Positions 32,867 to 56,290 of a stretch of 64,000 bases of DNA are shown in pieces. The notes beneath the pieces were generated by a model. The model was not told the DNA's origin. It saw only the letters and a program-made list of their open reading frames with translations, and ran no database searches. Within the stretch, counting starts at the first letter, position 1. Each line of letters starts with the position of its first letter. The translations under genes and the position numbers were made by a program. This stretch comes from Schmidtea polychroa (taxonomy: Eukaryota). The stretch spans positions 9,300,001 through 9,364,000 of the forward strand of contig CM097886.1 in assembly GCA_044892525.1 (NCBI GenBank). Direction: 5' to 3'.

Positions 32867-33272
32867 TTAAATCAAAAATCAAATAAATAGAGAAACGTTG
32901 AGAATGATAGGTTTGGGCCAAACTGGTTTTCAACATTTTCTTCAAGTAATCAAGTAATAGGTTTAATTTTTGATGACTTTGTAATGCATTTGACTAAATA
33001 ATTTTTTCAATAATTTTCTAAGAATATTTCCATTTACACATTGATGAACTTTAAAAAAACATAAGCTAAGAAACCAGTTAACTTTATCAAGGACTTCAAA
33101 TTTATTTGAAAATAATTGTAAGATATACTGAAATTTGTGATTTAGTTTGCTATTATGATCAATCAATATATATCATCTCTAGTTAGGTGAAATATTTGTA
33201 GGACATAATAAGTTTATTATGTCGTTGTTACATAAGTCGACTTTAGCGTCAAAATGTGTTTTTAAAATTATA

Positions 33273-35598
33273 TGTAAGGTTGCCCGTGAATATTAAACAA
33301 ATAAATAACAATATGAATTAAAGATTTAGTTAAACGAAATATATATTAAATACAAAACGATAACCAAATAATAACTAGCTGCACGCTAAAGTACAGATAT
33401 CGGTTATACAAACCGCCCTAAAGATTATTTCAAAGAATCAAGGCTGGCCTTAAATGTGCCAATAGCCCGATATAGGTGAACGGATAAAGAAGAAGGATTC
33501 CCGAGGTTTTACCGCTATACTATTAACCCAGATAAATGGTTAATAGTTGAAATTAAAACAGTCAAAACAGCTACAAAAAGTCTTGGCTGGTGACTGTGCC
33601 CTTTNNNNNNNNNNNNNNNNNNNNNNNNNNNNNNNNNNNNNNNNNNNNNNNNNNNNNNNNNNNNNNNNNNNNNNNNNNNNNNNNNNNNNNNNNNNNNNNN
33701 NNNNNNNNNNNNNNNNNNNNNNNNNNNNNNNNNNNNNNNNNNNNNNNNNNNNNNNNNNNNNNNNNNNNNNNNNNNNNNNNNTTAATAATTCTGCACTGAG
33801 TAAAAGCGAACCCGAAAATTGGTTATTAAGCTTAATTTCAATTGAGGCTAATAGATATTGGATTCAAATTCCAACCAAATAATTATTGAGACTAAATTTC
33901 TAATCGATGCTAAATATTGGATCTAAATTTCCAATCGAAGCTAAATATTGAATCTAAATTTCTAATCGACACTAGTATTCTAAATTTCTGATCGACACTA
34001 GTATTCAGTGAATCTAAATTTCTGATCGACACTAGTAGTTAGTGATTCTATAAATATCCTGGATTGTGCTTGATCGATAACTAAGTTAATAATGGTGAGC
34101 CTTAAATATTTGTTCTTCTTCTTATTTTCGCAATAATTTTTTGTCGCCCCTAAAACTAAATTTTTAATTATATTTATACTATTTTTTACTTACCTACATC
34201 TATTTTTAGTAATTATTTAATTACTAAATTTGTGTGTATAATATATAATAAAATACTATAATTATTTAAAATCTAAATATAGTAATTGTTTATTACTATT
34301 TATAATTAAGTTCTAAACTTAGTAATTTTAATTCTATTTTTGGTATTTATTTAATACTATTAATAATCAATCTTTATTTAATTCTAAAGCTTTCCTAATA
34401 CTTTTAGTTCCGGTTCCTACTGAACCCCAACATGTCTTCCCTCTAACAAGATTTTCGTCCCGAAAATTAAAGCGGTAAAGACAGGGNNNNNNNNNNNNNN
34501 NNNNNNNNNNNNNNNNNNNNNNNNNNNNNNNNNNNNNNNNNNNNNNNNNNNNNNNNNNNNNNNNNNNNNNNNNNNNNNNNNNNNNNNNNNNNNNNNNNNN
34601 NNNNNNNNNNNNNNNCAACTAGATCAAAGTTTCAAATCACAAAATCAGAATAATCAATTATTGTTCTTATAGGATAGATCAAATGTTATTGTTTGGTAAA
34701 TGTTTATCAATTTGAATAATTGGATTGGATTGGATTGTCGAAGGTGTTGGGATTGAGGACGTATAGCAAATAGCTAGGTTTGTTGAATACATAGCAGAAT
34801 TGCTGATATTTTCTCTTTTTCATGACTTTGGCACTGTCATTACGGATTCTTTGTTCTACTATGTCCGGTCTGTAACTGACCACCAATGTCTCCCGTGTAC
34901 TTACTTCTTTGTACACGATTGATGAGATGATATAAGAACCCTCATTAGCCGCCTCCAATACTCCGTAATCGGGGAAATTGGACACGGCTACTTCATGAAT
35001 TGGGCCTCCGTCGTATTCCTTGATACGCGGTTTCCATTTACTATCGGGTCTCTGCCACCAACTAGGATCTTCTCTGTCGGCATCTTCCCGTATTTTAGTT
35101 GAGTTACCTCTTCCAATGAATTCGCCTTCTTTCACTATGATTGGCTCTCCTGCAACCATGGATTCGACCTTTGTTGTCAATATCTTGGTCAATGCTGGAT
35201 CTGGTGGCTGATAGTGAGTTTCTAGCAGATCGTCATCCTAATCCTGGATGGATATCCTAGGCATTTTCTTTTTTGTACTCATTAGGATCTCCTTTTTTCT
35301 TTTTGTAGAGGTAGGGACATTTTTCTCCCTTGCCTCTTTCTGGGTCGGTTCGACCGTTGTCTTCATTTTGAATTTCAAGTCTTGTAGTTTGAGTAGTGGT
35401 ACTACAGCTTGTGGTAATGCTCCTCCTTCTGCTCCTCCCTTGGATTCGATCAACGGGGCCAATGCTTTCAAGATCTTGGTGACCCGTTCAACCAGTTTTT
35501 CTGCTGGTGGTGATTTTTCCGTTTCCATTTTAGCAGAATTCACCACTCTACCATCATTGGTAAGCGTGACTTGGAGGCAATTATCATCTGTGCTCTCT
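33273..35598 (-). mobile_element. Inverted 3'-end copy of the large Gypsy element (accessory ORFs, PPT, LTR 33273-34432)
   Basis: Reverse complement of about 53103-55260; ORFs 34707-35192 and 35238-35546 nearly identical to 53509-53994 and part of 52771-53463; PPT AGAGGGAAGA; contains two N gaps. Confidence 0.92.
33605..33781. other. Assembly gap (further gaps at 34487-34615 and 38745-38885)
   Basis: Runs of N. Confidence 1.
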
Positions 35599-38533
35599 CA
35601 TAAGTGCTTCTTATATAGCATTCTAGCACTTTTAAAAGAGAAGAAATAGGTCGTAATCATCAAAGAGCCGCCAAATATTACGAATTTTTAAATCTATTAA
35701 ATTATGATGAAGTCACAGATTGTCCAATGAGACTGTGTAACATTCCCAAATTTGAGAGGAAAAATCCTGAGTTAAACTTGTCCATAAACGTTCTGTCTTA
35801 TAATCCAGCCAGTTCCTATTCTGATATTTCTGAGGATTATGTAGCTCACCACCCTCATCTTAATATTATTCATCGTTCTAAGGTTATCGATGGTAGGCCG
35901 ATTTATTTATTACTTTTGAGTAATAAAGATAAATATCACTATACGGCCGTTACAGATTTGGAAAAGTTAATGAATTGTCATTTAAATGAAAATGTAAATG
36001 TTCAAATAAGGTGTAACTGGTGCCCACATTGTCTTAATGGGTTTAGATATAAGAATGCTTTTGATCAGCATGTAGCTCTATGCTGTAAGAATCAGACTGG
36101 CACAACACTCTACACACTTCCTAAAAGTAAAGATTTATTATTTACAGATTACGCAAAAACCGTTACACCTCCCTTTGTAATTTATGCCGATTTTGAATCG
36201 GTTTTACCAGAACATGAAACACATCATCAAATACATATACCTATCTCAGCAGGTCTTTTACTTATAAATAATTATACTAATACTAAATTTTATTTTTATT
36301 TTTTTGGACCGAATTGTGTTTTGGATTTTTTAAGGAAAGTGGAGGAAATTTCTGTCACAATTGTCCTGCCATATTATGAACTCAAAGGTCATAAAGGCAT
36401 GTCTACTTTGTCTTTTGCTCAGGAGCGTGCCTTTCGATCTAGCACAATTTGTTATTTATGTAAGAAAGATATTATTAGTCCTGTAAGAGATCATTGCCAT
36501 TTTACTGGCAGATATGTCGGAGCGGCATGTAGGAGATGCAATGTCTCTCGCAGGATTAATAAGTTATTAGCCGTTGTATTTCATAATTTAAGAGGTTATA
36601 ATTTACATCATATTTCCCTTTGGGAATTAAATATTATACCTATCTCTACAGAGAAATTTATTTCTTTAATTGCTTATATTAACAAATTGCCTGTTCGTTT
36701 AATTGACAGCGTGCAATTTATTAATTGTTCTTTAGCTAAAGCTGTGAAAACTCTAACTACTTTTCCTTTAACTTCGTCTGTCTTTCAAGGGTCGATGATT
36801 CATTCTAAAGGTGTCTTTCCGTATGATTTTGCTACTTCTTTAGATGTTCTTGAATCGACGTTTGAATTACTTTCTATTTGGTCTGATATTACGGAAGATC
36901 AGTACGCTGAGGCTCAACTAATTTGGAGTCAGCATAACTGTAATAATTTGTTAGATTATATGCTAATCTACCTAAAATTGGACGTATACCTCCTCGCAGA
37001 CTATTTTCAGCAATTCCGCGGTAAGGCAATTGCTTACAATGGTCTGGATCCACTTAATTTCTATGGGATTCCCGGTATGTCATGGGCCTCAGCGCTTATG
37101 ACATTAACGGAACCCATAGAACTTTTGCAGGACATGGAAATGTACAATTTCTATGAGGGAGGTATCCGGGGTGGGTTAACATTTGTTAACAAACATTACA
37201 CGGCTACTTCAGATGACACAGAATTATTGTACATAGATATAAATAATCTGTATGGTTGGGCTCTTAGCCAAAATCTTCCGTATGGTGATTTTTCTTGAGT
37301 GAATGATAATTTGAATGATGTTTTGCTTGAATGTATGAACACGGATATTGATAACCTTCCATATGGGTACACTATGGAGGTAGATATCGATATTCCGGAA
37401 TGTGTGCATGATTTTTTGAATGATTTTCCGCTTGCGCCGGAAAAGTTGTGCCCACCTAATTCAAAGGTTGAGAAGCTTATGCTCACGCATTGGCCAAAGA
37501 GGAACTATGTTCTTCATTGGAGGCTTCTCAAATTGTATATAGAATTAGGTGCGGTGGTTGTAAATATTCATAGATGTATAAAATTTAAACAAGGACCTAT
37601 ATTTAAATCGTATATAGACACTAATACGACTTTAAGATCACAGTCTACAAGTGAAATATATAGGGACTTGTTTAAATTGTATAATAATAGCCTGTACGGT
37701 AAATCCGTTGAGAATCTCAAAAAACGTATGAATTTGAGGTTGTGTAATTCATCCGAACAGATGATATTATACTCCTCAAAGCCGACTTTCAGAAAGTCTA
37801 TAAGAATCGATGGGGATAGCCGCACATTTGGAGAAGAACTCAATTTGTTTAGATAGACCTAGCTACATTTGTCAAACAGTACTAGATCTATCTGAACTGC
37901 GGATGTACCAGCTCTAATATATTGATTTGGAGAAGTACAGGCAACAATTCAATTGCATAATAAATATTATAGCCGGTGATACAGATAGTTTCTTTCTTGA
38001 GATTAAAAATTTAAAATTATCAACTTTATTACCTCAGATGATCTCAGATAATTTATTGAATACATCTAATTAATTATGATCCAACACACCCCTTGTATAA
38101 TAGGAACCTTGAGTCTGTTATCGGGAAGTTTAAAGATGAGAGCAAGGGATTAGGTTACTCAGAATGGGTTTTCTTACGTCCTAAATGTTATATTCTTTTA
38201 GGTAGTAAGGAAACAGTGAAAGCAAAGGGGGTTAAATTACCTGGGACATCAATAAATCATGAATCTTATTTAAATTGCTTTAATAATAATCAGGTGATTT
38301 CTGTACCGCAGACTAGAATAGGTACTAGAAATCACCAACTTTTCACATTTAAAAACTCGAAAATTGCCCTAAGTAATAACGATGATAAGCGCACATGGCT
38401 AGTAAAAAACATAAGTTATGTATTTGGGCATTATTTAGGAGTTGATGACCTTAGCGATTATGATGAGGAGGAATTCGGTCCAGCTCCAAGTCCCAGTTTC
38501 GATGACAGTTCGTGGGACGAAGATGAAATGTGA
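35598..38533 (+). pseudogene. polB: Polinton/Maverick-type family B DNA polymerase, near full-length but disrupted
   Basis: CFLYSILA, VIYADFES, endonuclease-VII-like VRDHCHFTG...C, FHNL.GY, KGVFPY, GIRGG, YIDINNLYG, KLYNNSLYGK, GDTDS, GKFKDE, KAKGV, DDKR; in-frame TGA at 37296-37298 and frameshifts after 37850. Confidence 0.93.
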
Positions 38534-38614: not shown

Positions 38615-38989
38615 AATTTATAAAAAGCTGTAAATATATTGAATAAAAATTTGTAAAAATTTAATATTGTTTTCTTTTTTTTATATAGTTTAAAGTTTTT
38701 TAGTTGAATAGTGTTTTTATATAGTCTGCAGTCAGCATGCAGCTNNNNNNNNNNNNNNNNNNNNNNNNNNNNNNNNNNNNNNNNNNNNNNNNNNNNNNNN
38801 NNNNNNNNNNNNNNNNNNNNNNNNNNNNNNNNNNNNNNNNNNNNNNNNNNNNNNNNNNNNNNNNNNNNNNNNNNNNNNNNNNNNNTAATAATAGGATATA
38901 TGACTCATTTGAAAGGTCTTGGATTGGGCTTTAAAATGGGCTATCGTTGAATAATTTTCGTTGGCGGGAACTCTGTAAATTTAAATATT

Positions 38990-39620
38990 AAAATATGACC
39001 TTGAAAAAAAATTAACCTTGAAAAAAAATTGACCTTGAAAAAATTTGACCTTGAAAAAAAATGACCTTGAAATAATTTGACCTTGAAAAAATAATATTTT
39101 TAAAAATAATAATAATAAAATAGTCAAATGACCTTGAATAAATTTAATATTGTTTTCTCGGGAAAATGATAATAACTTTGCCAATATTAATGATGACCAC
39201 TATAGCTCATTCGAAAGGTCTTGCACTAAGCTTCAAAATAAGATATCGATCGATGAAATACACTGATGGGAATGATCTCTTTTGGCATGCCAAATAGTAG
39301 GGCACCGCTAGCACACTTAATAATATTTTTGAAAAATAATAATAAAAATAATAATATTTTTAAAAAATAATAATAAGACCTTGATGAGTCATCGCGATGA
39401 GTCATATGACCTTGGATGAGTCATGCGACCTTGAAACGACCTCGAGGAGTCATTGTCTTTGTTTAAAGGACCTTGGAAAAAATTTCTCCAAATTGATGAG
39501 AATGACCTTAAGAATGACCTTGAGAATGACCTTGATGAGTCATCGGATGAGTCATGGTCTTTGTTTCAATGACATTGGTGAGTCATATGTCTTTGTTTAA
39601 AATTTGACCTTGAAAAAAAT
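38990..39620 (+). repeat. Array of TGACCTTGAAAAA units and GATGAGTCAT units downstream of polB
   Basis: Directly visible repeats; the same TGACCTTGAAAA core occurs inverted at 55325-55990. Confidence 0.85.
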
Positions 39621-39661: not shown

Positions 39662-41190
39662 GTGCCAGCGGTACCTAATCCATCTACTGACCTTCAGGAG
39701 ACGGAATCAGAGGAGAGTTCCGATGATGAACCTAGTATGGCCACCATACTAAGCGAGTACCATGTAACCTTGCCAGGGAAAGCAAAGGTAAAAGAAGGGT
39801 CAGATTCCCTAACAAAATGTTTAAAACTGGTGGATTCCAGATATGAGTACCAGCAGAAGCTGGATAGACAATTGGAAAAATTTGGAGAAACAAAGATTAA
39901 AATTCACGAAATCGATACAGTAGTAAAACTGATATCGCAGGTTGAAGATGACCCAAAGTATCATAACGACACGTACAAAATCCTAAGGAAATTAGGAAAA
40001 CTCATGGAACATGAGTGGGATCTCCAAGATGCTCAACTCAATATAAAACTCCCCAGGATAAAGAGTATAATCTCGATATAAATGTAAGAAGCCGAGCCGA
40101 TAAATTAACAGAAACATTGACAAGTATTAAGCATCAAGGATATGACTTATACTTATGTGGAATAAAATTAGAAACAAACCAAACACTTTTACAGAACGGG
40201 ATACTCCCAGGTAGAGTGACGAAGCTCACAGCAAAGAGAGCACCGAAGCCAGTGGCAGTAATGGATCAAGATAGTGTATTCTTGATTACTCAGATGGAAA
40301 TCGAGAGATTGAAGGAAACTCAACAATTAACCCAGCGACTAGGGTTGGAATTGCAAAAATCTTCACGAGATGGAGAAACCATAAAGCAAATACTAGATTG
40401 GATGTTAGTATTACGAATACCCGTATATTTGTTGGAAGCAATAATTCCACTTATACTACCAGTGGTAAAGGAAACAAGCCCATTCCAGACGCAAATCGAA
40501 GCACTGATGAGGAGAAATGGGAAAGCTATCCGAAGTCAGCCTGATCGACAAGGCAACATTAATCTAGACGTGCGAATGATTGGAAAAGAACCATCAACAA
40601 TGATTTATAATTGTTATATCAAGGTCAAAATATTAAGGAGAAATGTGATTGCCACCGATCAAACTACAGGTATATTCGTGATATTCCATGGTAGGCAAGT
40701 GGATGATGATGAATATCTAGTGGATGTGGGTTGTCTACCGTTGGCAAGAACCACAGTAATGATCATCCCAGTAACTCCACCCGAATCACAGTGGTCATTA
40801 ATGAGACTGTCAGATATAGCAAACGAAATTGTGGAAGAGATCGAGGAAATAAGACTAGAGGAAATAAATCCCTGTCAAATGGTGGACATTGACGAGGAAG
40901 ATTACTTCTCAGAGTACGTCAGATTAAATCCAGGAGAAACAAACGTAGGAGCTACTACGTCACAAGCTGTAACAAATCCGGAGACTGAAAAACCCCCGGA
41001 GAAAGTGAAAAAAGATGGACGAGGACGTCCTAGAAAGGATCAAATGAAACCTCCACCCAAGGAGCAGTTAAATCCGGAAACGATTCGAAAAATTCAACTA
41101 AAAACATTAGCAGGGATAGCTCAAGAAGTGGACGACCAGGCGGAAGAAGAGACAACGCCAGAGAGGTCGTTATTGTGGCAACGTGTATAA
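39662..41190 (+). pseudogene. Accessory ORF with two ubiquitin-like domains and an AT-hook (one frameshift near 40053)
   Basis: QLNIKLP/QDKEYNLDIN...LYLCGIKLETNQTL and INLDVRMIGK...VIFHGRQVDDDEYLVD resemble ubiquitin QIFVKTLTGKTITLEV...LIFAGKQLEDGRTLSD; GRGRPRK at about 41017-41037. Confidence 0.7.
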
Positions 41191-41193
41191 CAA

Positions 41194-43380
41194 ATGATCG
41201 GGATTATTAGGCCCGAATGGAGAATTCCAAAGATCAAGGGAATCGAAGTGAAGAAAATAACGAAAGAGGTCAAGAAGACAATGGATAAAGTATCCAAAGA
41301 TGTATCAACAGGAAATATTCAGGATGCCATAGAAGCATTTGTACAGCAAGGATTAACAAGAGGGAAAGTGGTAACATCGCTATCATTGTTAATTCAAAAT
41401 GCCTTAGCGCGAGCAGGGAACGATAAAAGGCTTATAGAACGAGAAATCGACCAAATAGTAGAAATAGTAGATTATTACCTTGAGGTGTGGATGACAGTAA
41501 ACAAATTTTGGGAAAAGGAAATAATCCCAAAACCACGATATGAAGTCGTGGAAGAAGCCATAAATAATGGTAGTTCAGGCACAGGGAACATAAGAAGCAT
41601 GATCTTGATGTTTCTGGTAATGATGGGCATATTAAAACAAACTAATTCACTGACAGTATTTGACTGTAGTAATCCTAAACTATCTCAGATATATTTGCTG
41701 GTAGATGCAATTGAATGCAAAGAGGCGTATCCGGAGAAGGTTCATCAAGGGAAAAAGGTAGAATATTACGTCTACCAAGAGAGTGAATTTTATAGAACTA
41801 CGATAAAGGAATGTAGAATTCAGAGAGCTACATTTGAATATTATTGCGGTAGTAATAGATATTCTGCTTTCCTATCCGCAACACTAATACCAAGGCCGGT
41901 AAACATAATGCCCGAAGATTGCCTAGATGCATTTTGAAACGGAAGTGTGAGGATAGACAACGAGGTATCAATCTCGGCAGAAATTAGGAAAACATTGAGA
42001 ATAACAATCACTCGAGGGGGAACAATTGCCTCAGATGGAACCTGCGAAGGCAGAAAGGAAATTCGCGGTAGCAATTTAGTTTCCTATGTGGTAGATATAG
42101 AAGATTACTCAGTGGAATTACGAGAATACGAGGGAACATTCGATGTGGCCACAGGAAAATTGATGGCACATCCGCAATGCAATGCCAAGTTCAGTAGTTG
42201 TAGAACGGGAACCACCACATTAATTTACGAAAAAATGAGAGATCATTGTTAGTTGGCATTCCTCAAGAAAATTCCTTTTTGAAAATTAAATGGAACTAAA
42301 TATCGGGACTCCCAGAATCCAGAAAAGGTTTGGGATAAAGCAAAAACGTTGAAGAAAATCAACAAACAAGAGAAGGAAGATATCGGAGAGGAAAACACAC
42401 CTCTAGTGTTGATATCGGAAGACAAAACAAAAGCAATTCAATTCGTCCGAAAAGATAAAAAGACTAAATGTGGAAAAAGAATATACGAGACGAACTACAA
42501 AGGAATTTTCCTGTCAAGAGAATATATTCGAAATGCCAAGGCCTTACATATAAAGGATATCAAAATCACGAATTATATAAATAATAAAGTAGATTATTTA
42601 TATCATGACCTGCAAGGACAAATGCAAGATATGTATCAAGTGAAATAGTCGTGAAATAATCGTGAAATAGTCGAAATAGATTAGCAATATCTATCGTTAA
42701 CCCAGAGTTGGTTACTCCAATGTTATTGGAAGATGGAATGTTTGGCTGAATCATGGGAGAAGCTATATATAGCTATGAGTGTAAACCAGTAGAAGTACAA
42801 TTAGCCAGATTTAATCAATGCACGCTAGAACTACCAGTGTCATATCAACCAGCAATATGCAACCCGGCAATATCACCATTATACAAAATAAATGACATGT
42901 GGATATCTTTGCCGGAAAGAAAACCATCTACACAACGTGTAGAGACCTTGGAGGTGACTAAATTAAAGGATACTATGGAATTCAAGTCATTAGATGAATT
43001 AGCTAAAGGAGGGATTTACACTCAGGACGATATTGAGGAAGCAAGAAGGACATTGCTATTCCCACAAATCAGAGGTATCACGGAAATTATAAGAACAATT
43101 TATCATGATACCTTAATACGGCCAGATTACAATTTATTATTTGGACCGGAACACTATAAAGAAGCAGCAAAGAACGTAATGATGAAAATATGGGGACGAT
43201 TTACTAATTTTGGTATTTTCGTCGCCGGATGCTCAGGAATTTACGCAATATTTGTAATTTTAAAGCTGATAATTACACAATTGATGTCAACATATAGAAT
43301 ATTCAAATTTGGCGGATGGTCATGAAAACTCTTATTAGGACTATGTCCTACGTGTGCAGAATTTGCATTATTCAAACATC
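41194..43380 (+). pseudogene. env: Chuvirus-G-like (gB-like class III) envelope glycoprotein with N-terminal leader, internal signal peptide and C-terminal TM
   Basis: MILMFLVMMGILKQTNS/LTVFDCS; C.I...YYCG; GTCEG; CG...YETNY; YINNKVDY; GEAIYSYECKPVEV...C..ELPV; LAKGGIY.QDD...LLFP; hydrophobic FGIFVAGCSGIYAIFVIL; several stops and one frameshifted zone. Confidence 0.82.
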
Positions 43381-44020
43381 ACAGAAAAGAAATCAAAGAA
43401 ATTAGACAGAAACATTTGGTTAAACATGAAGTAATTGGAACAGAAATGGATGAATATTCCAGTTATCGGGACGATAACAATTCAAAGGGAGGAGGTAATG
43501 GAGGCTCTTGTGAAACATCTTCAAGACCAAATCAATCACGAAAACAGAACTACAACAAAAAACCAAATCAGCAACAAAGAAAATCGAGATTTAAGGAATA
43601 TCTTCCTCCATATGACCAATCAAAGTAAATCTAGGTGAGAAGACAGTCCTCAGAAGGAGAATATGATAGTTCCGAGCAAAAATTCGACATAAGGTCACCC
43701 AGATTCAAGAGAAGCCCAAGATATGTACAATTGCCAACCCTGAGGAGTTTACCAACCGCACCAAACGATGGGCTGGAACATTCAAGGGAAACGACACTCA
43801 GAACAGGACGCCACCATTGGAAAATTGGTGAAGATACCATATTTAATAATCTGACATGTTCAACATTGCCAGAATTACCCGAAGTGCACTATCCAAAGGA
43901 AGCGTTAGAGTCACTTAAAGCTAAATTTAAAGAATATAATCCTCAACTGAGTGATCCAAAATTACTGAAGCAGAACAAACAAGAGCCAATACAATCGGTA
44001 TCTCGCACGATACAATCCTG

Positions 44021-47000
44021 ATGGTCAATAATCCAGTGAACTTGGATAAAAAGCCAATGATAAAAATAAGAGTGAACCGACATACAGTCAATGCGGTGAT
44101 AGAGTCAGGAGCAGATGGTACCATAATTGAAGCTAAATTGTTGAACCATCACGAATTACATTCGTTAAAACCGACAGGAGTAAAATTAACAGGAACAAAC
44201 GGATCCTCATTAAACGTAATAGGATCATTATCTTGTCAGATTAAGCTATGTGACCAAGAGCTCCATCACGACATCATAGTGATGAGAAGTCTCCTGGCCG
44301 AATGTCTATTGGGAATGGACATCCTAAAAAGACTACGAGGAGTAGTATTCGATTGCACATCTGGATTGTTAATCCGAGCACGAGGTAAAAAGAGAAATAT
44401 TTACAACGATAATACAGCTTATATAGATCATACAACCATCATACCACCCAGAACGGAAACAGTATGCTTTGTAGCTACAAGCAATAATTGGGAAGGTGAA
44501 GTTGTATTCGAACCAGACGAAAGGTTTTCGGAGAAATACAACATACCAGTTATTCATAGCGTAGGCTTAATAGTCAATGGCAGAATACCAATCAGGGTAG
44601 CCAATCTGGACGTTAAACCACTATACTTATACCCAGATACCAGAGTGGGCAGAATCTGGAAACAAAACGAACAACAAGCCACGGAAGAAGGGTCGATACT
44701 CACCATAAAGGCTAAAGAAAGAGAGCCAGACATTGATTACTACGACGCACCTACGGCCAATAGCAAAGTGCTAACCAGAAAGGAAAATATTCAAGCAAAT
44801 ATGCTATTGAGGAAATACGACCAGGTATTCGCGAAACATGAATACGATCTGGGAAAAACAAACTTGTTAGAACATGAGATTGTTCTCACCAATACAAAAC
44901 CTATAAAGTTGAGACCATACCGTATTCCATTCAGTCTGGAGGAATCAGTAGACAAACAGGTGAAATTGATGTTAAAACATGGCATAATCAGGCACAGTAA
45001 ATCACCATATCAATCGCCAATGATGGATCAGTACGATTGTGTAACGACTATCGCATGGTTAACGAGGCAACATGCAAAGATAGCCATCCATTGCCATTAC
45101 TAGATTATATTTATGGACGCATGAGAAACGCTAGGTTTTTCTCAGTAATGGACGCTCAAAAGGGATTTTATCAAATTAAGTTAAAAGATGAGACTATACC
45201 AATAACAGCGTTTTCTACGAGTATGGGTCATTACGAATATAACGTAATGCCATTTGGACTCACGGGAGCTCCAGCCACATTTCAAAGAGCAATGAATTTG
45301 ATGCTCATGGATGTACATCATGCGATGGTATACATTGACGACGTCATAGTATTCTCGCCAAATTTGGAAAAACACTTGGAGCATTTGGAAGATGTATTCA
45401 AGAGGTTGATCAATGCAAACATGAAAGTGAAACCGACCAAATGTAAATGGGCTGAACCAGAAGTGGTATATATTGGCCACATCATCTCACGAGATGGGGT
45501 CAAACCGGATCCAACTAATGTCGAAAAGGTAAAGAATTTCCCGGAGTCTAAAACCGTTAAACATATCAAATGGTTTTTAGGCCTAGTTGGATACTACAGA
45601 AAATTCATTAGAAACTTCTCGGTTATTGCTTTTCCATTCACGCAGTTAGAAGGCAAAAACGTCAAATTTGTGTGGGGAACAGAACAGCAGGAAGCATTTG
45701 ATATGCTCAAGGAAAAACTCGTCAAGCCACCTATATTACGATTTCCAGACTTTGAGAGACAATTTTTGGTTATGAAAGATGCCAGGCACTCGGGCATAGG
45801 TGCTGTGCTAGGTCAGAGAGATGACCTAGGAGATGAGTATGCAATTGTATACGCTAACAGAGGATTAAAACCACACGAGAGAAACTACGCAGTGATAGAA
45901 CTAGAGGCTTTAGCAATTGTGTATGCTATAACCCAGTTTAGGACATATCTATGGGGTTGGAAGATCATAGTGTACACCGATAATAGACCATTACAGTGGC
46001 TGACGAAACACACAATGGATACCTCAAAACTAGTCCGATGGGCATTAATTTTACAGCCATATGACATAGAAATCCATTATAGAAAAGGAGATCATAATGG
46101 TAATGCAGATGCTTTATCGAGAATGGACCAGGAGGAAGAAGCAGAAGATGTGAAGGAAGGGCGTCTCGAAGGGACTATCTTCACATTGACCAGAGAAGCC
46201 AACAAACTAGCCGATTTGATGGAGGCACAAAAATCTGACGAAGAGATCAATGTTATTCGTCAATCCTTGGAAGCAAAATACGTGCCCACAGAATTCACCA
46301 AATACTGGGAAAAGAATAAAGACAAGTTTGTGCTGGAGGAAGGATTAGTTAAATATTCAGATGTAAGAGATAATGTTATAATGGTCTCTTAGAAATTTTG
46401 TGAAGCACTCATGTTGCAGTATCACGATGGAGCCTTAGGAGGACACCTGTCATCCAGAAAAACATTGTCGAGATTAAAACAAAAATATTTTTGGCCAGGC
46501 ATGAAACAAGACGTTAAAACCTGGTGTCAGACATGTAAGATCTGTATCACCAGGCGAAATACCGGAACGAAACCCCACGTACCAATGAAGCCGATGCCTG
46601 TACCATCTACACCCATGGAAATGACGGCAATGGACGTGTTGGGGCCATTCAAAGAATCTAATAGTGGAAACAAGTACATATTAGTGTTCTGCGACTACTT
46701 GACTAAGTGGCCGGAAGCCTACCCGACGCCTAATCACAAAGCTGATACGATAGCTAGAATTTTCGTTGAACAAATTGTCTTTAAGTATGGAGTACCCACG
46801 AAGTTATTAACGGATTGGGGAACAGATTTCATGAGTAATTTGCTCAAAGGAATAAATGATTATTTCGGAGTTCTAAAGTTGAATACTTCCCCATATCACC
46901 CACAGGCGGATGGGTTAGTAGAACGATTTAATGGAACATTAGCTAACATGTTAGCATCATATGTAAATTCAGGGCAAACGGACTGGGACATCCACATTCC

Positions 47001-47430
47001 ATCCTGTTTATTTGCATACAGAAATGCAGTGCACGAAGGAACAGGTGAAACACCATTTTACCTAATGTATCTGAGGTAAAGTAAAAAATCTGTTGTTTTT
47101 CCCTAAAGCAACACAGTATTTAGATCAAGAAAATTATCTAATAGAGATGAGGGAAAGGATGCAGGAAGCATGGACTAGAGCAGGTCTCAGTATAAAATAT
47201 AATCAGGAAGCATCAAAAGATTATCATGACCGAAAAGCCAAGGAACGTGGCATAATGTTTGGAGACCAGGTGATGTTGGAAAGTCATTATAACAAGAAAG
47301 CTTATCACCAAAACTCATGCGGAATTTCAAAGGGTCATATGAGGTATTGAGAAATTCAGATACAAATCTCATACTACAACTTGTAGCCAACCGAAAAGCA
47401 GAACCAATAATGCTAATCGGTGTAAAAAGT
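44021..47430 (+). pseudogene. pol: Gypsy-type pol: protease, RT, RNase H, integrase (disrupted)
   Basis: IESGAD (catalytic D to E), RPYRIP, DAQKGFYQI, MPFGLTGAPATFQ, YIDD, ELEALAIV, YTDNRPL, HHCC finger, DVLGP/TDWG/VERFN; frameshift at about 45020 and several stops. Confidence 0.95.
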
Positions 47431-47489
47431 GTGAAATCCCAACAAAAGGGATCTCCGGAAATTCAAAAGTAAAAGCACTAGAGAAACAG

Positions 47490-48465
47490 GTGAAACCAAA
47501 CTCCAATGAAGAAGCACAAAAACACCGATACCCATTGAGATCACGGGGTGTTCCAAAATCAGTAACTTTTATGTTGATAATAAGTTGTATGATGACCTTT
47601 GCTATGGAAAAAAGGGATAAAAAGGCCTATTTTCAGCCTATGGCGATGCGTGGAAAATTTACATTTTATAAGAACCTATCACGGAATTCGTATACTTAAA
47701 ACGTGTGATAATGCCACAAAATTCAATCTGCATTTCTACAATAAGTACTTACGGGTCCGCCAATTTAACTCAGTAGAAAGAGAATGGGATTTGTATGATT
47801 TAAAAGCCGAGACGGATTACAAACTGCACATCGCAGCATCAAGGTTATATCAGAGTGGTTGGTATACCTATCATGTATCAAATTGGATTCTAAGGACGGC
47901 GGATTTCACAAATCGCATATCGATATCTTACGAAAAAGATAAAGTTAAATTTAGTCAGCTACTTATCGGGGAGGAAAAGGTAAAAGTCAATATTCTAGAT
48001 GGACTAATCACGAGAGAAACAATATGGTTAGTATCGAACTCTCCTTCCAAAGAATATTCGGTTCTAGTTATATACTATAGTCCGAGGAAACGGCAGGACG
48101 ATAGGTGGTTCGAGGTATTCGAGGAGATATTACCTCTTAAACATCCAGTTACAACGAAAATACCACCAAAAGTAGTTAGGGAGAATATGGTGATACATCC
48201 CGCGATGTGGCAACATCTCAGACAATTGCCACCTATCAAACAAATTTCTTGCCAAACGACTCCAAACCTGACAAACTGTTGTGATTGCAATGTCATCACA
48301 AACTTCAACGCGAGATACATTCTGAAAATACCCACAGTGGTATGGATCACGGTATCGGCCGTACTATCACTAATAACCACAGTGATAGCTATGGGTATTT
48401 GGACCAAGCTATATTTTAGACAAGCCATAAGGGCTTACGACGGAGTGCTGATGTCGAAATTATGA
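47490..48465 (+). pseudogene. Second type I membrane protein after integrase, with an FN3-like motif
   Basis: Hydrophobic SVTFMLIISCMMTFAM (signal-like), WDLYDLKAETDYKLHIAA (FN3 tyrosine-corner-like), C-terminal TM IPTVVWITVSAVLSLITTVIAMGIW, short tail; one frameshift near 47655. Confidence 0.55.
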
Positions 48466-48494
48466 CAATTACAGCCTCCCCAGAGGTAAAAATC

Positions 48495-48567
<73 letters not shown>

Positions 48568-48571
<4 letters not shown>

Positions 48572-51500
48572 GGTGGGTCGAATGTTAATAAATTTTGAGT
48601 TCAAGAAAGGAAACATGGTTAAAAAGTTGTATTTTGGTATAGAAAAATCGAATCAAACCATTTTACTTAGATTTATGGACATTTACTGCTCCCAACTTTT
48701 CTCCGAAAATGCAGTTCAACATAAGTGTGAAAACAATGTAATTTGGCTAGTGTCGGAATGTGTTTTGCGCCTTTGTCCATATTTAGATGTAGCTTTCTTA
48801 AGAGCTTATAAGTATATTATTTACTCTCTTGGGCTGAGATAGTATATTCTGTGTCCTCATCCCGCATTGAAATATATCCTGACAACGTCAGTGATTAGGA
48901 AGGGCCAAATTTGAATTATCCTTTTCAAAGACAAAAATCAACTTTCGAAATTATTTTTTATTAAAAACATCCAGCCAAAAGTTTAGAAATGTATTAGCGA
49001 GGGCATAAAAAGAAGTCACATGAAATCAGCTTTGCTTTGCACCTTGGGCAATTCCTTCCTTGATTTTTTACACAGTAGTACCATACCATGTCTGGACTTG
49101 TGACCAAACACTTTGCAACTGGCAGAAGAAACATCTTTGATGGCTCTTTCAACGGCTTGAGAATGACAGGGAAATTGTTCTAATGTAATTTTCTTATTCA
49201 TCTTCAATTCATGATCCAATATATGAGATAAAAGAGGGGGAGGCGTCAAATTACATTTTGTCCAGTCAATCATGTCAGCATATGATGTAGCAGACGACTG
49301 AAGAAAGACAGTATTCTTGTCCATAGTGCGAATCACTTCGGAAGGGAGAAAATTTTGTCTTGCAGTTATGATTTTTTCTGTTGCAAACTTTCTGATTTCT
49401 TCATCATCATCACCAACAGCAGCTAGGAGTATATTTTCTGGATGTGAGAAGTAATTGTTGTTCTGAATGACAGGAAAGATGATTTCTTGGTCTGATGGAT
49501 CCAAATCCTGCAGAAGTTGGAGCATATAAAAAATATTTCTTGCACCATCTTGGCATGACGAGTGAATCTTTATATAAAACCATGACGGTCCATAGAAATT
49601 GACAATAAATTTCACTATTCGCATGAGAGGTTCAGATGGAGCAGTTTCGGACATATATAGTCGCAGAATTCTATTAGCTTTCGTTAGCCAGCGACTGTGA
49701 TTCAAATTTCCTGGTTGTGCCATTTGTAGAAAAGGGACATCCTTGTTGTTGTGGTACCCTTTCTGGACTGCCAAGCATACTCTGAGGAAATACAATTGAT
49801 CAGTGTTCAATTCTTTCTTGACATTTTCACTAATATCTACGACCTTTCCAGGAAGGGACATAAAGGCTACTACGGGCTTGTCTTTTGGATCAAAATCAAG
49901 AACGCTTCCTATTTCACCACATGACGTTTTTGGACCTTTTGTTTCTCCACCATCGACGACTGAAAAATACTTCCTGAATGGCAATTCATTTGCATGCAAC
50001 AAGCATATCAGCCATTGTAGAGGTCGCCCTAGGCTTTTTTCGAGTCTTCTGATTATTCCATTATTTTTTCCGGTGTTTGTATTGGTTCCATCGCACACAA
50101 TTGCTTGAAGGGTCAGTGAGGACTGCGTGCTAACGATGATTGACATGATTTCTTTGCCAATATCCACAGCTTTACTACTTTGAGGTACAACATGATCGAT
50201 ATATGTATCCCCTGGAAAGGCGACAATCACATAATGCTCCTCTTTTAGGATCCTTCTATGAAGTAAGGTGGAATCTTGTTTCCCGTCGAAACCGAGGCAA
50301 ATCAAGTTTTTCGCTTCTGCTGAATGCTGTTCAATTTCTCTCTCCCTCCAGTACTTTCTCTGACGTCGTAATTTTGCGGGATCGATGATTGTTTGAGAGG
50401 ATAACAGTTCCATATCTTTCAGAAAAGCGTTTACTAGCAAACACGTGTCTCTGTTGCTCACACCACATCTGTCAACAGCTTTACTTAATTCAGGATAATG
50501 TCTTCTATTTTGAAATTCATCACATTCTTCTACGCTTGACTCTGAGCTTTCTGTTGAATTGTCTAACTTATCTTTACTTTCATCACTAGCGGCTTCACTC
50601 TCCGTGTCACTTCTTGAGGTCGGATGTAGATCGTTAACTTCAGTGTCCATTATTTCATTTTTCATTTGTTTTCCTTTTCCTGTAGGGCTGCTTTTCGTTT
50701 GTTTTCTCTTCAATTTTGAGGTTTCCTGTCTGTCCGTATTTCCGATTTTCATGTTTCTGGTAGTTTGTTGGTCAATCCAGAACTCCCACTCTAAGGTAGG
50801 AATTTTCAAGGCCAATCGGCATGTACACTGACTTCTTCCACGAGCACCATCATTAAAACATTTGCAGCAACATATGTCAAACAATTTGGAAAACGAGCTT
50901 AACTTATCTTGAAATTTGGCAGATGACCTCTTGCATACTGGATACTTCTCTAATTCACGCACTTTTGATATTAGTCGCTTGACACGAACCACAATACTAC
51001 TGAACTCAACAGTTGGGATACTTGCCTTCATATAAATTTCCTTCACCTTATTTGCGAGAAGAGTTGCTTGTTCGTTAAAGCCAGTATGAAATTGCGTACA
51101 TTTCTCATTGTAACAGTAATCACGAAACACATCTTCACAAGTAGGTAATTGGTTTCTGGGTAGTTCACAAGTTTGACCAAACAGACAATGACGTGATTTA
51201 CTTCTTGTTTTGCGAAATTGCTTATTTCTCTGTCCCTTCATAACTGCTCTTCTGTACTCAGCTCCTGCAAAATAAAAGTGAATCATCAAGTTAACTTTTT
51301 TAATTATGTCCAGCAAACACTTGACATCCAATCGAAACAAATTAAATTATCTGAGTTTAGACTGACTAGTAGTATCCATGTGGATTATGTGTTGACTGTA
51401 GTGTGTGTGTTAGTATTGTTCAGAAGAAATTGTCTTTGTGAGTGCTTGTGTGAAGGTGCTTCCGTGAATTAACCTCTCTATACATGCACGCGTTAGCTTG

Positions 51501-51724
51501 GACTTGTGAATAGAGCATGTCAAAAATGGTCTTTCTGCAAGCGTGTGACTGCTTGCAGGATGAATTTACAATTTTTACTGGGATAGTACTAATACATACA
51601 AACAAAAGTTGGGACCTGTAAACCCTTTTAAACAGCAGTCTTTTGCAGGGATATTTCATTTTCTAGCATAAGCACAACTTTTTAGGCATGTTTGGAGAAA
51701 AAAAAAATTTTCGACCCACCCTAA
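48568..51724 (-). mobile_element. hATm-like DNA transposon inserted in a (TA)n microsatellite
   Basis: 14-bp TIR TTAGGGTGGGTCGA at both ends; both flanks are (TA)n. The subfamily call rests on recalled TIR and motif pattern. Confidence 0.85.
49016..51340 (-). CDS. Intact DDE transposase (hATm-like), up to 774 aa
   Basis: GFDGKQD, CDGTNTNTG, QWLICLLHANELPFR, HSRWLT, PCHSQAVERAIK; no stops; true start may be the downstream Met near 51240. Confidence 0.88.
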   Translation of the reverse strand: MFRLDVKCLLDIIKKVNLMIHFYFAGAEYRRAVMKGQRNKQFRKTRSKSRHCLFGQTCELPRNQLPTCEDVFRDYCYNEKCTQFHTGFNEQATLLANKVKEIYMKASIPTVEFSSIVVRVKRLISKVRELEKYPVCKRSSAKFQDKLSSFSKLFDICCCKCFNDGARGRSQCTCRLALKIPTLEWEFWIDQQTTRNMKIGNTDRQETSKLKRKQTKSSPTGKGKQMKNEIMDTEVNDLHPTSRSDTESEAASDESKDKLDNSTESSESSVEECDEFQNRRHYPELSKAVDRCGVSNRDTCLLVNAFLKDMELLSSQTIIDPAKLRRQRKYWREREIEQHSAEAKNLICLGFDGKQDSTLLHRRILKEEHYVIVAFPGDTYIDHVVPQSSKAVDIGKEIMSIIVSTQSSLTLQAIVCDGTNTNTGKNNGIIRRLEKSLGRPLQWLICLLHANELPFRKYFSVVDGGETKGPKTSCGEIGSVLDFDPKDKPVVAFMSLPGKVVDISENVKKELNTDQLYFLRVCLAVQKGYHNNKDVPFLQMAQPGNLNHSRWLTKANRILRLYMSETAPSEPLMRIVKFIVNFYGPSWFYIKIHSSCQDGARNIFYMLQLLQDLDPSDQEIIFPVIQNNNYFSHPENILLAAVGDDDEEIRKFATEKIITARQNFLPSEVIRTMDKNTVFLQSSATSYADMIDWTKCNLTPPPLLSHILDHELKMNKKITLEQFPCHSQAVERAIKDVSSASCKVFGHKSRHGMVLLCKKSRKELPKVQSKADFM

Positions 51725-52228
51725 TATATATATATATATATATATATATACGTAGAGCTCCAGGTAGCATTAAAATTCGGCATATGTAGATCTTTTATAA
51801 CAAGACTCATGCATATCTTTTTAGCTTATTATGGCATATCAGTATATCTGATATTTTGGTTAATAATTTTTATTTCTAGAATGCAGAGCCATCAGATATC
51901 TCAATATCAAGGAAGACAAGGAAGACATAGCACTACTGAAGGAGAAACTCATATATAAAAACCTGGAGAAGCAGGTAACTGAACAAAGTCGAAAAGGGCA
52001 ACGGCACTGGTTCTACGGTCATTGCTCAGGCATACCCAACAATTTCAAATTCGACGAGGCCCCAAAACGTCAAATGATAATTTCAAGAATCCCGGGCAAG
52101 CATAACGCCAGCATTAGGCTTACCGATGTCATGCATGAGTTTGGCAGACATATCTGACCAACCACCTGTGGATACACGCCATTAACAAACCATTTACGGT
52201 TTATGTTCCTGGTGCCACAAATTCTATT

Positions 52229-52890
52229 TTGCAGCAAAAGCATACAACCCTCGAAATATCTCACTATTATGTGAGGGAATGGACACCATCGTCGCAATGG
52301 AAATCTTGGAACCCCACAAGGAGACACAAACGAGATGGGTCAGCGAACCAAACTGGAGATACAATGTCAATGACAATGATATCAAAACGTTTGGACCCCA
52401 GACAAGAGGATAACCTCACCATTTTCCTAGCAGCTCATTACGCCACACTACGACAATTCCTCAAACCAGCCATTGTGGCAATTTCAATTTCGCATTTTAA
52501 CGGCGATTTAATCCTCAACACTAGAGTTACCCCCAGATCACAGGTCAAACATTACCAATCACATGCGCATGTTATGACCGAAAGGGAAATAACCGGACAG
52601 TTTGATGGAGAAGACTGTGCCGAAAGAATTAGGAAATTCTGCAATGGGAAAATCATCGTGGGATTATTGGTAAAGGATCTATTGGAAGTAATTAGATTTC
52701 CAATGCAACGCGCCCTCGGAATCCGTGAGTTAAGCGCAGCTAAATGCCTCGAAAATAGGGACTTAAAGAAATGCAACGGGTATTACCGTTTGGCATATTT
52801 GGCATATTTTGGCGCATCGTTTCTCGGACCTTCAAACAGGGAATGATGTTACGACTATTAAGGAAATATATGACAATCTGCGAGATATCT
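52229..52890 (+). pseudogene. ISG20/REX4-like DEDDh exonuclease domain with degenerate catalytic motifs
   Basis: AIVAISISHFNGDLILNTRVTPRSQV...GKIIVG aligns with REX4 [26 protein letters not shown]...GRILVG; NDVTTIKEIY in a shifted frame matches EDARATMELY; Exo I DxE replaced by AAH. Confidence 0.68.
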
Positions 52891-53994
52891 GAATTGATGA
52901 TATTTCACCCGATACCCGAAAATGTGGTGACATCACAAATAAAACAAACGGAACCAGAAACCTCAAGCATGCATAAACCCTTAGCTATGGAGAACTATGT
53001 AAAAGAAGACATGCCCAGGTCCAAGTTAATGAAAATAGTGGAAGAAGATTCCTTGTCGCCGCCAGCCATCTCAATTGCTGACGAAGACGATTATGCCACT
53101 TGCGAGAGCGCAGATGATAATTGCCTCCAAGTCACGCTTACCAATGATGGTAGAGTGGTGAATTCTGCTAAAATGGAAACGGAAAAATCACCACCAGCAG
53201 AAAAACTGGTTGAAAACGTCACCAAGATCTTGAAAGCATTGGCCCCGTTGATCGAATCCAAGGGAGGAGCAGAAGGAGGAGCATTACCACAAGCTGTAGT
53301 ACCACTACTCAAACTACAATACTTGAAATTCAAAATGAAGACAACGGTCGAACCCACCCAGAAAGAGGCAAGGGAGAAAAATGTCCCTACCTCTACAAAA
53401 AGAAAAAAGGAGATCCTAATGAGTACAAAAAAGAAAATGCCTAGGATATCCATCCAGGATTAGGATGACGATCTGCTAGAAACTCACTATCAGCCACCAG
53501 ATCCAGCATTGACCAAGATATTGACAACAAAGGTCGAATCCATGGTTGCAGGAGAGCCAATCATAGTGAAAGAAGGCGAATTCATTGGAAGAGGTAACTC
53601 AACTAAAATACGGGAAGATGCCGACAGAGAAGATCCTAGTTGGTGGCAGAGACCCGATAGTAAATGGAAACCGCGTATCAAGGAATACGACGGAGGCCCA
53701 ATTCATGAAGTAGCCGTGTCCAATTTCCCCGATTACGGAGTATTGGAGGCGGCTAATGAGGGTTCTTATATCATCTCATCAATCGTGTACAAAGAAGTAA
53801 GTACACGGGAGACATTGGTGGTCAGTTACAGACCGGACATAGTAGAACAAAGAATCCGTAATGACAGTGCCAAAGTCATGAAAAAGAGAAAATATCAGCA
53901 ATTCTGCTATGTATTCAACAAACCTAGCTATTTGCTATACGTCCTCAATCCCAACACCTTCGACAATCCAATCCAATCCAATTATTCAAATTGA
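52771..53994 (+). CDS. Accessory ORF pair of unknown function separated by one in-frame TAG (53461-53463)
   Basis: Both ORFs in the same frame; near-identical copy on the minus strand at 34707-35546. Confidence 0.55.
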
Positions 53995-54102
53995 TAAACA
54001 TTTACCAAACAATAACATTTGATCTATCCTATAAGAACAATAATTGATTATTCTGATTTTGTGATTTGAAACTTTGATCTAGTTGTTATTTATTATTGCT
54101 TG

Positions 54103-54154
<52 letters not shown>

Positions 54155-54256
54155 ATCAGTTTATTTAATTTTAATTTTAATTTTTGTTATCAGCTGCAAC
54201 GGCCCTGTCTTTACCGCTTTAATTTTCGGGACGAAAATCTTGTTAGAAGGAAGACA

Positions 54257-55260
54257 TGTTGGGGTTCAGTAGGAACCGGAACTAAAAGTATTAGGAAAGC
54301 TTTAGAATTAAATAAAGATTAATTATTAATAGTATTAAATAAATACCAAAAATAGAATTAAAATTACTAAGTTTAGAACTTAATTATAAATAGTAATAAA
54401 CAATTACTATATTTAGATTTTAAATAATTATAGTATTTTATTATATATTATATACACAAATTTAGTAATTAAATAATTACTAAAAATAGATGTAGTAAAA
54501 AATAGTATAAATATAATTAAAAATTTAGTTTTAGGGACGACAAAAAATTATTACGAAAATAAGAAGAAGAACAAATATTTAAGGCTCACCATTATTAACT
54601 TAGTTATCGATCAAGCACAATCCAGGATATTTATAGAATCACTAACTACTAGTGTCGATCAGAAATTTAGATTCACTGAATACTAGTGTCGATCAGAAAT
54701 TTAGAATACTAGTGTCGATTAGAAATTTAGATTCAATATTTAGCATCGATTGAAAATTTAGTCTCAATAATTATTTGGTTGGAATTTGAATCCAATATCT
54801 ATTAGCCTCAATTGAAATTAAGCTTAATAACCAATTTTCGGGTTCGCTTTTACTCAGTGCAGAATTATTAATCAGTTAGTTAATATTTATATATATATAT
54901 TAATACCTATCTCATTTTTCTCACAAATAAAGGGCACAGTCACCAGCCAACACTTTTTGTAGCTGTTTTGACTGTTTTAATTACAACTATTAACCATTTA
55001 TCTGGGTTAATTGTATAGCGGTAAAACCTTGGGAATCCCTCCTCTTTATCCGTTCACCTATATCGGGCTGTTGGCGCATTTAGGGCCAGCCTTGATTCTT
55101 TGAAATAATCTTTAGGGCGGTTTGTATAACCGATATCTGTACTTTAGCGTGCAGCTAGTTATTATTTGGTTATCGTTTTGTATTTAATATATATTTCGTT
55201 TAACTAAATCTTTAATTCATATTGTTATTTATTTGTTTAATATTCACGCGCAACCTTACA
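54257..55260 (+). repeat. 3' LTR, 1004 bp (TGTTGGGG...CCTTACA)
   Basis: Preceded by purine tract AGAAGGAAGA; the same boundaries in the inverted copy at 33273-34432. Confidence 0.88.
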
Positions 55261-55324
55261 TGTAATTTGTGGAGTCAAATCTTTTTGAGTTAGATTGAAC
55301 TACCCATCGAACCTAACAGATACG

Positions 55325-55990
55325 TATTTGAGTATTGCTCACAAGGGTACTGGTCACACTTAACAAGTCGCAAGGACATATTATTATTATTTTTCCAAGG
55401 TCATATGATTTTCAAAGTCATATTATTTTATAGTTCATATTATTTTTCAAGGTCATATTATTTTTTTTATTATTTTATTAATAGGTATTTGGGAATTGCT
55501 CACACAGGTACTGGTCACACTTAACATGTCGCAAGGGTAAATTATTATTATTTTTTCAAGGTCATATTATTATTTTTATTATTTTATTGATAGGTATTTG
55601 GGTATTGCTCACAAGGGTACTGGTCACATTTTACAAGTCGCAAGGGTATATTGTTATTTTTTTCAAGGTCATATATTTTTTTTATTATTTTAATGATAGG
55701 TATTTGAGTATTGCTCACAAGGGTACTGGTCACAGTTAACAAGTCGCAAACGTATATTATTATTATTTTTTAAGGTCATATTATTTTTTTATTATTTTAA
55801 TTATTTTCACGGTCATGTTAATTTTTTTTATTATTTTAATGATTACTACTTGGGTTTATCTCACAAGGGTAGTGGTCATACTGAACAAGTCCCGAGGATA
55901 TATTTTTATTATTTTTCAAGGTCATATTATTTTTTTATTATTTTTATTATTTTCAAGGTTATTATTTTCCAAGGTCATATTATTTTTTTT
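55325..55990 (-). repeat. Array of about five TATTGCTCACAAGGGTACTGGTCACA units interspersed with TTTTCAAGGTCATATT
   Basis: Directly visible units near 55335, 55495, 55603, 55710 and 55858; variable AT-rich spacers. Confidence 0.9.
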
Positions 55991-56290
55991 ATTATCGCCT
56001 TATTGCCACCTTCAATCTTGATATAATTAAATCCAAGAATAGCATCTTTAAAAAGCGTATGAAAGAAACAATTATTAGGTATCGTAGCATCTGCATCACC
56101 CAAAGCCTTTTTATCTTTATCTACAACCTTGATCTTAACAGTTAGCAATGTTTCATTCAAATCTAAATATTCAGTTTAAGAACCATTGATCCAATAGAAT
56201 TCATTAGAAAACCTTCTTCGAAAGCTCCATATTCAATAACCGCTTGAGACGATGGTGGATCAAATATACACAATTTATATTTACCTCAAA
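55975..56290 (-). pseudogene. Polinton major capsid protein, N-terminal remnant
   Basis: IFDPPSSQAVIEYG...EYLDLNETLLTVKIKV...PNNCFFHTLF resembles Polinton MCP N-termini. Confidence 0.7.

Follow-up and report, generated by a model that had tools for sequence, protein, structure and literature searches.

A conserved pseudo-exonuclease with a predicted oxygenase-like domain in a Burro-like Ty3/gypsy element of Schmidtea polychroa

Within a 64,000-nucleotide stretch of Schmidtea polychroa DNA (hereafter the window; assembly GCA_044892525.1, contig CM097886.1, positions 9,300,001 to 9,364,000), a decayed LTR element of the Ty3/gypsy type (39689-55318) encodes in its last ORF a DEDDh exonuclease fold whose catalytic residues are replaced, preceded by a predicted oxygenase-like domain. 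The copy in the window is a damaged, decayed member of its family, but comparison among copies indicates that the catalytic loss itself is not decay. Taken together, we read the product as a conserved pseudo-exonuclease with a metal-free oxygenase-like domain, likely expressed by splicing and likely serving as a non-cutting, RNA-binding scaffold for the element RNA, an overall reading to which we give about even weight.

The initial annotation had proposed that a retroelement carries the nuclease, and the surrounding features (Table 1) bear this out. The element is Burro-like and has lost its 5' end and 5' LTR, the match to a sister copy beginning at 39689. We refer to the window's family as A and to three diverged sister families with a dead nuclease as B, C and D. 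A PF24664 glycoprotein precedes the protease in the window, and family B has it within one 3221-aa frame. By domain order, a mononegavirus-like glycoprotein predicted between gag and the protease, reverse transcriptase (RT), RNase H and integrase gives the Burro-like GAG-ENV-POL layout. Neither in the window nor in family B did Pfam find ubiquitin-like, Bcl-2, BIR, MATH or ankyrin cargo. Within the genome, the RT of family B was 73% identical to that of family A and 53% identical to that of an intact-enzyme family described below. The region that follows the integrase (and positions 3-884 of locus L064) is a second membrane-type region, and in open copies it seems to extend the pol frame. The DNA transposon downstream of it is not part of the retroelement and its ORF had no Pfam match; the same family, with ATTAGGGTGGGTCGAA ends, was also seen in another copy of the retroelement (L021), again near the start of the accessory ORF. 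On either side of the element lies a tandem repeat containing GACCTTGA, in opposite orientations (38905-39620 and 55299-56000). An inverted copy of 53101-55268, a segment spanning the accessory ORF's 3' portion and the greater part of the LTR, lies 17.5 kb upstream at 33265-35600 (94-99% identity by segment). Elsewhere in the window are ORFs whose motifs resemble those of a hAT transposase (967-3018), a piggyBac-type transposase fragment (31476-32249) and a broken family-B DNA polymerase (35619-38533).

Table 1. Features of the retroelement and its accessory ORF, in window coordinates
Feature	Position	Strand	Basis or remark
Gag-side region, truncated at its 5' end, and env (fusion glycoprotein of Monjiviricetes type) ahead of pol, several stops	39689..43628	+	Pfam
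Protease, RT, RNase H and integrase in Ty3/gypsy order, broken	43955..47079	+	Pfam
Region after the integrase with a hydrophobic segment at its end, no Pfam family	47343..48465	+	
Later DNA-transposon insertion with ATTAGGGTGGGTCGAA ends and a 776-aa ORF (49016-51346)	48565..51725	-	In a (TA)n run
Pyrimidine tract and AG directly before the first ATG, splice-acceptor-like (predicted)	51865..51880	+	
Whole accessory ORF: double-stranded beta-helix (DSBH) domain, DEDDh domain, charged low-complexity linker, conserved C-terminal part	51881..53994	+	
DSBH domain (2OG-Fe(II) oxygenase/cupin-like) without HxD..H triad	51987..52320	+	Frameshift-broken here
DEDDh (ISG20L2/REXO4-type) pseudo-exonuclease domain	52415..52889	+	Family profile, fold search, copy comparison
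3' LTR (TG...CA) with a purine-rich tract before it	54257..55318	+	Inferred ends, based on partial matching with both sister-copy LTRs

All REX4/ISG20-type motifs named in the initial annotation were found at their place in the window. The Exo I position reads IFLAAHY, with Ala at codon 52430 and His at codon 52436, followed by ISISHFNGDLILNTRVTP and by GKIIVGLLVKDL, within which the Exo II acid position (52679) is Leu. The Exo III motif D-V-T-T-I-K-E-I-Y has Leu at the His position (52830) and retains Asp at 52845; it lies in a different reading frame from the other motifs because of a deletion near 52805. Compared with a sister copy, similar frameshifting deletions are present near 51936, 52153, 52258 and 52388. 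The five catalytic positions of the window copy are thus A, H, L, L and D in place of D, E, D, H and D. At codon level, this agrees with the earlier description of an Exo I DxE replaced by AAH and an altered Exo II, which had overlooked the loss of the Exo III His as well as the N-terminal domain; its start at 52229 falls within that upstream domain, the nuclease domain itself occupying 52415-52889.

The proposed ISG20/REX4-like fold was upheld by a family profile, whereas the window sequence by itself fell below standard thresholds. Queried alone, neither the window ORF nor three sister copies matched RNase_T in Pfam, and a single-sequence search of PDB sequences gave ISG20L2 only at E 0.015. 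A profile of 71 family members, 32 of which matched RNase_T individually, retrieved ISG20L2 (E 1.3e-31), ISG20 (3.3e-20) and SDN1 (2.4e-18). When a sister copy was modelled with AlphaFold (pLDDT 93, pTM 0.90), its leading Foldseek matches were ISG20L2 (E 2e-9, TM by target 0.80) and ISG20 (E 8e-8, TM by target 0.82), with TM values of 0.80-0.82 for ranks 1-3, and RNase_T/REX4-like clusters came out on top of an Atlas feature search (0.93-0.94). The domain has a DEDDh fold of the ISG20/ISG20L2/REXO4 group. A homodimer prediction, run without an alignment, gave no answer (score 0.00).

A DNA search in which 40 of 166 candidates were scored yielded 30 loci of the window's family. Across these copies, the five catalytic positions read Ala (28, with one Val and one Ser), His (29, one Gln), Leu (30), Leu (29, one His) and Asp (29, one gap). 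The first Asp, the Glu and the second Asp are therefore missing in 30/30 copies and the catalytic His in 29/30, the same replacement being found at each lost position in 28-30 of the 30. Sister families at 43-61% identity read SGLLE (B), SRLLE (C) and AHFLD (D), so that an acidic Exo III residue (Asp/Glu) is retained in families A-D. An Asp also lies one residue ahead of the Exo II position, and the alignment offers no indel by which it could be brought into register. By its predicted residues, the protein lacks the set of an active DEDDh enzyme (Exo I Asp and Glu, Exo II Asp, Exo III His and Asp). In human ISG20L2, one change at any of these five residues abolishes activity (PMC10899777), and the protein of the dead family is very probably devoid of nuclease activity.

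Families B and C share 90% amino-acid identity in the dead nuclease domain, compared with 78% in the DSBH domain and 67% in the tail. Their nuclease domains gave a pN/pS of 0.08 (bootstrap 0.05-0.13) and a dN/dS of about 0.03, the latter being rough since dS is near saturation (about 2); the values were 0.06-0.10 for the DSBH domain and 0.08-0.15 for the tail. Two copies of the window's family gave 0.14, the A-D and A-B pairs were saturated, and intact-enzyme pairs of similar depth had a pN/pS of 0.14-0.23. LTR pairs were 99.3% identical in family A, 100% in B over the 261 nt compared and 99.9% in the intact family. By our own count, about 30 copies of the window's family among the matches listed have an open frame of at least 750 codons. 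The young LTRs together with the low pN/pS indicate that elements active until recently carry the dead gene, which is under as tight a constraint as its intact counterpart.

In open copies, the accessory ORF is about 700 aa long; in the window, frameshifts and a stop at 53461 interrupt it. Its N-terminal 180 aa were modelled as a double-stranded beta-helix (pLDDT 89), with ABH8, PHD2, AlkB and cupins as the nearest fold matches; these were weak (E about 4e-4, TM 0.3-0.5), so the assignment stops above the subfamily level. Judged by title, every listed match was a DSBH fold or a relative of it, and the predicted structure places the domain in this fold. A dUTPase reading of the domain, made by eye, was dropped when the structure model and the fold search gave DSBH. 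With strands assigned by analogy, the full HxD/E...H metal triad was found in 0/50 rows, intact-nuclease rows included, and HxD/E alone was present in two of the 27 intact rows and in none of the 23 dead ones. A profile of the domain matched 57 rows, none of them from a host at E < 1e-3. The DSBH and nuclease domains are predicted to pack as a single unit (pTM 0.90). The conserved C-terminal part (53464-53994) showed a weak match to a GCN5 acetyltransferase over 31 residues (E 0.17), which may be due to chance.

The pyrimidine tract and AG ahead of the first ATG recur at family A, C and D loci, and the accessory ORF is probably expressed by splicing, as far as these predicted acceptors indicate. 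At the one ATG checked in an intact-enzyme locus, no such tract and AG were seen. Contigs from four runs, a data type blind to strand and splicing, showed no informative joint when compared with a sister copy.

Searching the genome for RNase_T revealed a repeat family with an intact DEEHD site, located in an ORF after pol of a Burro-like element that also has ubiquitin-like and weak Bcl-2 motifs. Ten further loci sampled from 150 genome matches read DEEHD in nine cases and EEEHD in one. By loci L067-L076, several multi-copy families besides this one have an intact DEEHD (49-76% identity to L039). The PF00929 genome search gave an ERI1-like single-frame gene and element copies, and host REXO4 was not found in it. 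With a natural open copy as query, an exhaustive search recovered 73 relatives, whereas a word-seeded homologue search gave no match with a single protein and two with a profile. The place of these homologues in elements is assumed; the 30 that were looked up had no useful name or genomic context.

We built a nuclease tree of 94 rows, from which the catalytic columns had been removed and six short rows and the ERI1-like host gene dropped. It separated the 73 non-host rows from 21 host REXO4/AEN-like rows with a support of 100, in a data set without rows for planarian host REXO4, ISG20 or ISG20L2. All five columns were filled in 60 of the non-host rows; of these, 34 were intact and 26 dead, with the dead nested among the intact. 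All 21 host rows retained DEDHD. The nuclease-only tree called for one inactivation (support 55) and a quick two-domain tree for five, long branches affecting both; a single dead clade was not rejected (p-AU 0.084). In the two-domain tree, the window's family fell within a 12-row all-dead clade (support 95). As intact and dead rows together make up one non-host clade, the gene would have been captured long ago and have lost its activity afterwards, in one event or in several. On this tree, the family does not group in the host clade as an ortholog of REXO4, AEN or ISG20L2. The earlier proposal of a captured host nuclease that was directly repurposed therefore survives as an old capture, its direct step being contradicted by the separate clade (support 100) and the intact majority. 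The link it drew to the antiviral ISG20 found no support beyond the fold.

We then considered what a nuclease fold without catalysis might do. Outside the five catalytic columns, the median net charge of the domain was +5 in dead and +6 in intact rows (p 0.84); dead rows being no more basic than intact ones, charge cannot single out RNA binding. The counts that follow do not represent independent events, as the rows share ancestry. In the 12-row dead clade, nine of 26 near-invariant columns hold residues that are rare in intact rows. Four of these newly fixed residues are basic (R67, R136, R272, K330), and six of the nine positions fall in the DSBH domain, where the non-basic ones are F61, G115, P119 and L128. 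The Exo I Glu has become Arg, His or Lys in 14 of 26 dead rows. Residues framing the pocket are kept (P239, R240, D263, G301, R303), while positions equivalent to RNA contacts of ISG20L2 have degenerated. Where ISG20L2 has W229, at least 31 of the 33 intact rows have I, Y, F, C or L, and the six residues commonest in dead rows (16/26) are all polar or small. A His matches H262 in 20 of 33 intact versus 5 of 26 dead rows, and the equivalents of S221, D284 and Q338 are lost in dead rows too; the R226 equivalent is uninformative, being conserved in neither group. The basicity that is kept, the frequent basic replacement of the Exo I Glu and the newly fixed residues, four of them basic, favour an RNA-binding scaffold. 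The accessory protein would be made from a spliced RNA of the element and would bind the element's own RNA without cutting it, either protecting or handling it. Contact with nucleic acid may be through a remodelled basic surface instead of the old pocket, a point on which the residue comparison leaves us evenly divided. Planarian gypsy/BURRO elements are silenced by SMEDWI-2 (PMC8532177), and by analogy the protein could act against host RNA decay or piRNA silencing, a tentative suggestion that we regard as more doubtful than RNA binding itself.

The most serious competing explanation, although a fairly improbable one, is a non-catalytic protein-binding module, in which the dead nuclease would serve as a folding platform and the DSBH side would bind a host or element protein. 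The concentration of newly fixed positions in the DSBH domain, several of them non-basic, suits protein binding no less than RNA binding, and the predicted packing of both domains as one unit agrees with it. So does a fold match of the DSBH domain to the N-terminal domains of vaccinia C16 (rank 27, E 1.3e-3), the oxygenase-like domain of C16 being one that binds a protein. However, the dead nuclease is the best-conserved part of the ORF between families B and C, which is more than a passive platform needs, four of the newly fixed residues are basic, and the module has no known partner. We consider it unlikely that the protein is a decoy, as the initial annotation had also suggested, with the dead pocket gripping and capping RNA 3' ends or competing with exonucleases of the host or of sister elements. 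The retained fold and pocket-framing residues would suit such a decoy, as would basic replacements of the Exo I Glu that could contact phosphate without metal and the intact relatives in the same genome, but the degenerate equivalents of W229, H262, S221, D284 and Q338 weaken it. Because several RNA contacts of the pocket are lost, we prefer a scaffold with a new basic surface over a product-trapping decoy, RNA binding being in either case our inference.

That the protein remains an enzyme with a rewired active site is very improbable. The Exo III acid kept in families A-D, the Asp adjoining the Exo II position and the strong constraint would be expected of one, but neither Exo I acid nor the general-base His remains, the DSBH domain has its full metal triad in none of the 50 rows, and the replacements vary among dead rows (AHLLD, SGLLE, SSILM, GVIYI), unlike a new catalytic site. 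Neutral decay of a once-active captured nuclease, close to the decay after insertion considered in the initial annotation, is less probable still. The several frameshifts and stops of the window copy and its lack of a 5' LTR are what decay would leave, yet for the active site it is ruled out by a loss common to all 30 copies and three sister families, followed by purifying selection. The identical replacements at each lost position, the roughly 30 listed copies with long open frames and the dN/dS of 0.03-0.14 between dead copies all speak against it. As judged from these copies, neutral decay is refuted for the family and would apply only to the later damage of the window copy.

Exonuclease-fold accessory ORFs downstream of pol have been described in gypsy-like LTR elements, namely the DEDDy-type ORF3 of the bdelloid rotifer retrotransposons Juno and Vesta (PMC5408684). 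As in our intact forms, these have D-E-E-D in place of DEDD, and the function of the ORF is putative in both cases. According to that description, the Juno and Vesta proteins are RNase D-like DEDDy enzymes whose catalytic residues are intact and whose tested ORFs vary near-neutrally from copy to copy, whereas the window's family is ISG20L2/REXO4-like DEDDh, fused to a DSBH domain, with dead lineages under purifying selection. In its GAG-ENV-POL arrangement, where gag and pol enclose an in-frame mononegavirus-like glycoprotein, the element resembles the planarian giant gypsy Burro/GYPSM1 (PMC6431247) and the errantiviruses of Platyhelminthes (PMC13524379). The intact-enzyme sister element further resembles Burro in its ubiquitin-like and Bcl-2-like motifs; unlike the giant Burro, the elements of the window's family are compact, a sister copy measuring about 14-15 kb. 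Section 7 of PMC6431247 names no exonuclease or cupin ORF for Burro, and the word exonuclease occurs 0 times in the main text and seven supplementary files of PMC13524379.

Among host proteins, the fold and profile matches link the domain to human ISG20L2, ISG20 and REXO4 and to plant SDN1, but this host group keeps DEDHD (21/21), has no DSBH domain and forms a separate clade (support 100). Inactive nuclease folds that bind RNA also exist in hosts. Maelstrom and EXD1 are stated in PMC5408684 to be inactive DEDD derivatives binding RNA, and the PXL pseudo-exonuclease of PML binds G-rich RNA (PMC13659232). As nuclease folds without catalytic residues, they offer a model for how the element protein may act. 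They differ in being host proteins on the defence side and members of other DEDD subfamilies, whereas the protein studied here is element-encoded and its binding putative. Our literature searches found no DSBH-DEDDh fusion and no selected dead versions in elements; Grohme et al. (2018) and Repbase may annotate the ORF. Exonuclease accessory ORFs and host DEDD pseudo-nucleases have thus been published, and we did not find an element-borne, selected, dead DSBH-DEDDh protein described.

It is conceivable, though speculative and rather unlikely in our view, that the enveloped gypsy elements of flatworms carry a two-state counter-silencing family, made up of an active exonuclease and of double pseudo-enzymes that evolved repeatedly. 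The active form would, like SDN1 or ISG20L2, destroy host small RNAs or their targets, and in the other form the dead oxygenase and dead nuclease would bind and shield the element RNA. If true, this would be a transposon-side mirror of the host proteins Maelstrom and EXD1. To our knowledge, most accessory genes in animal LTR elements have no known function, and we know of few element-encoded counters to piRNA silencing. Here, one gene family exists in one genome in intact and dead forms, both of which are carried by young multi-copy elements and show purifying selection. It provides a natural paired comparison of what the gene does without catalysis, in a group where PIWI knock-down and RNAi are routine.
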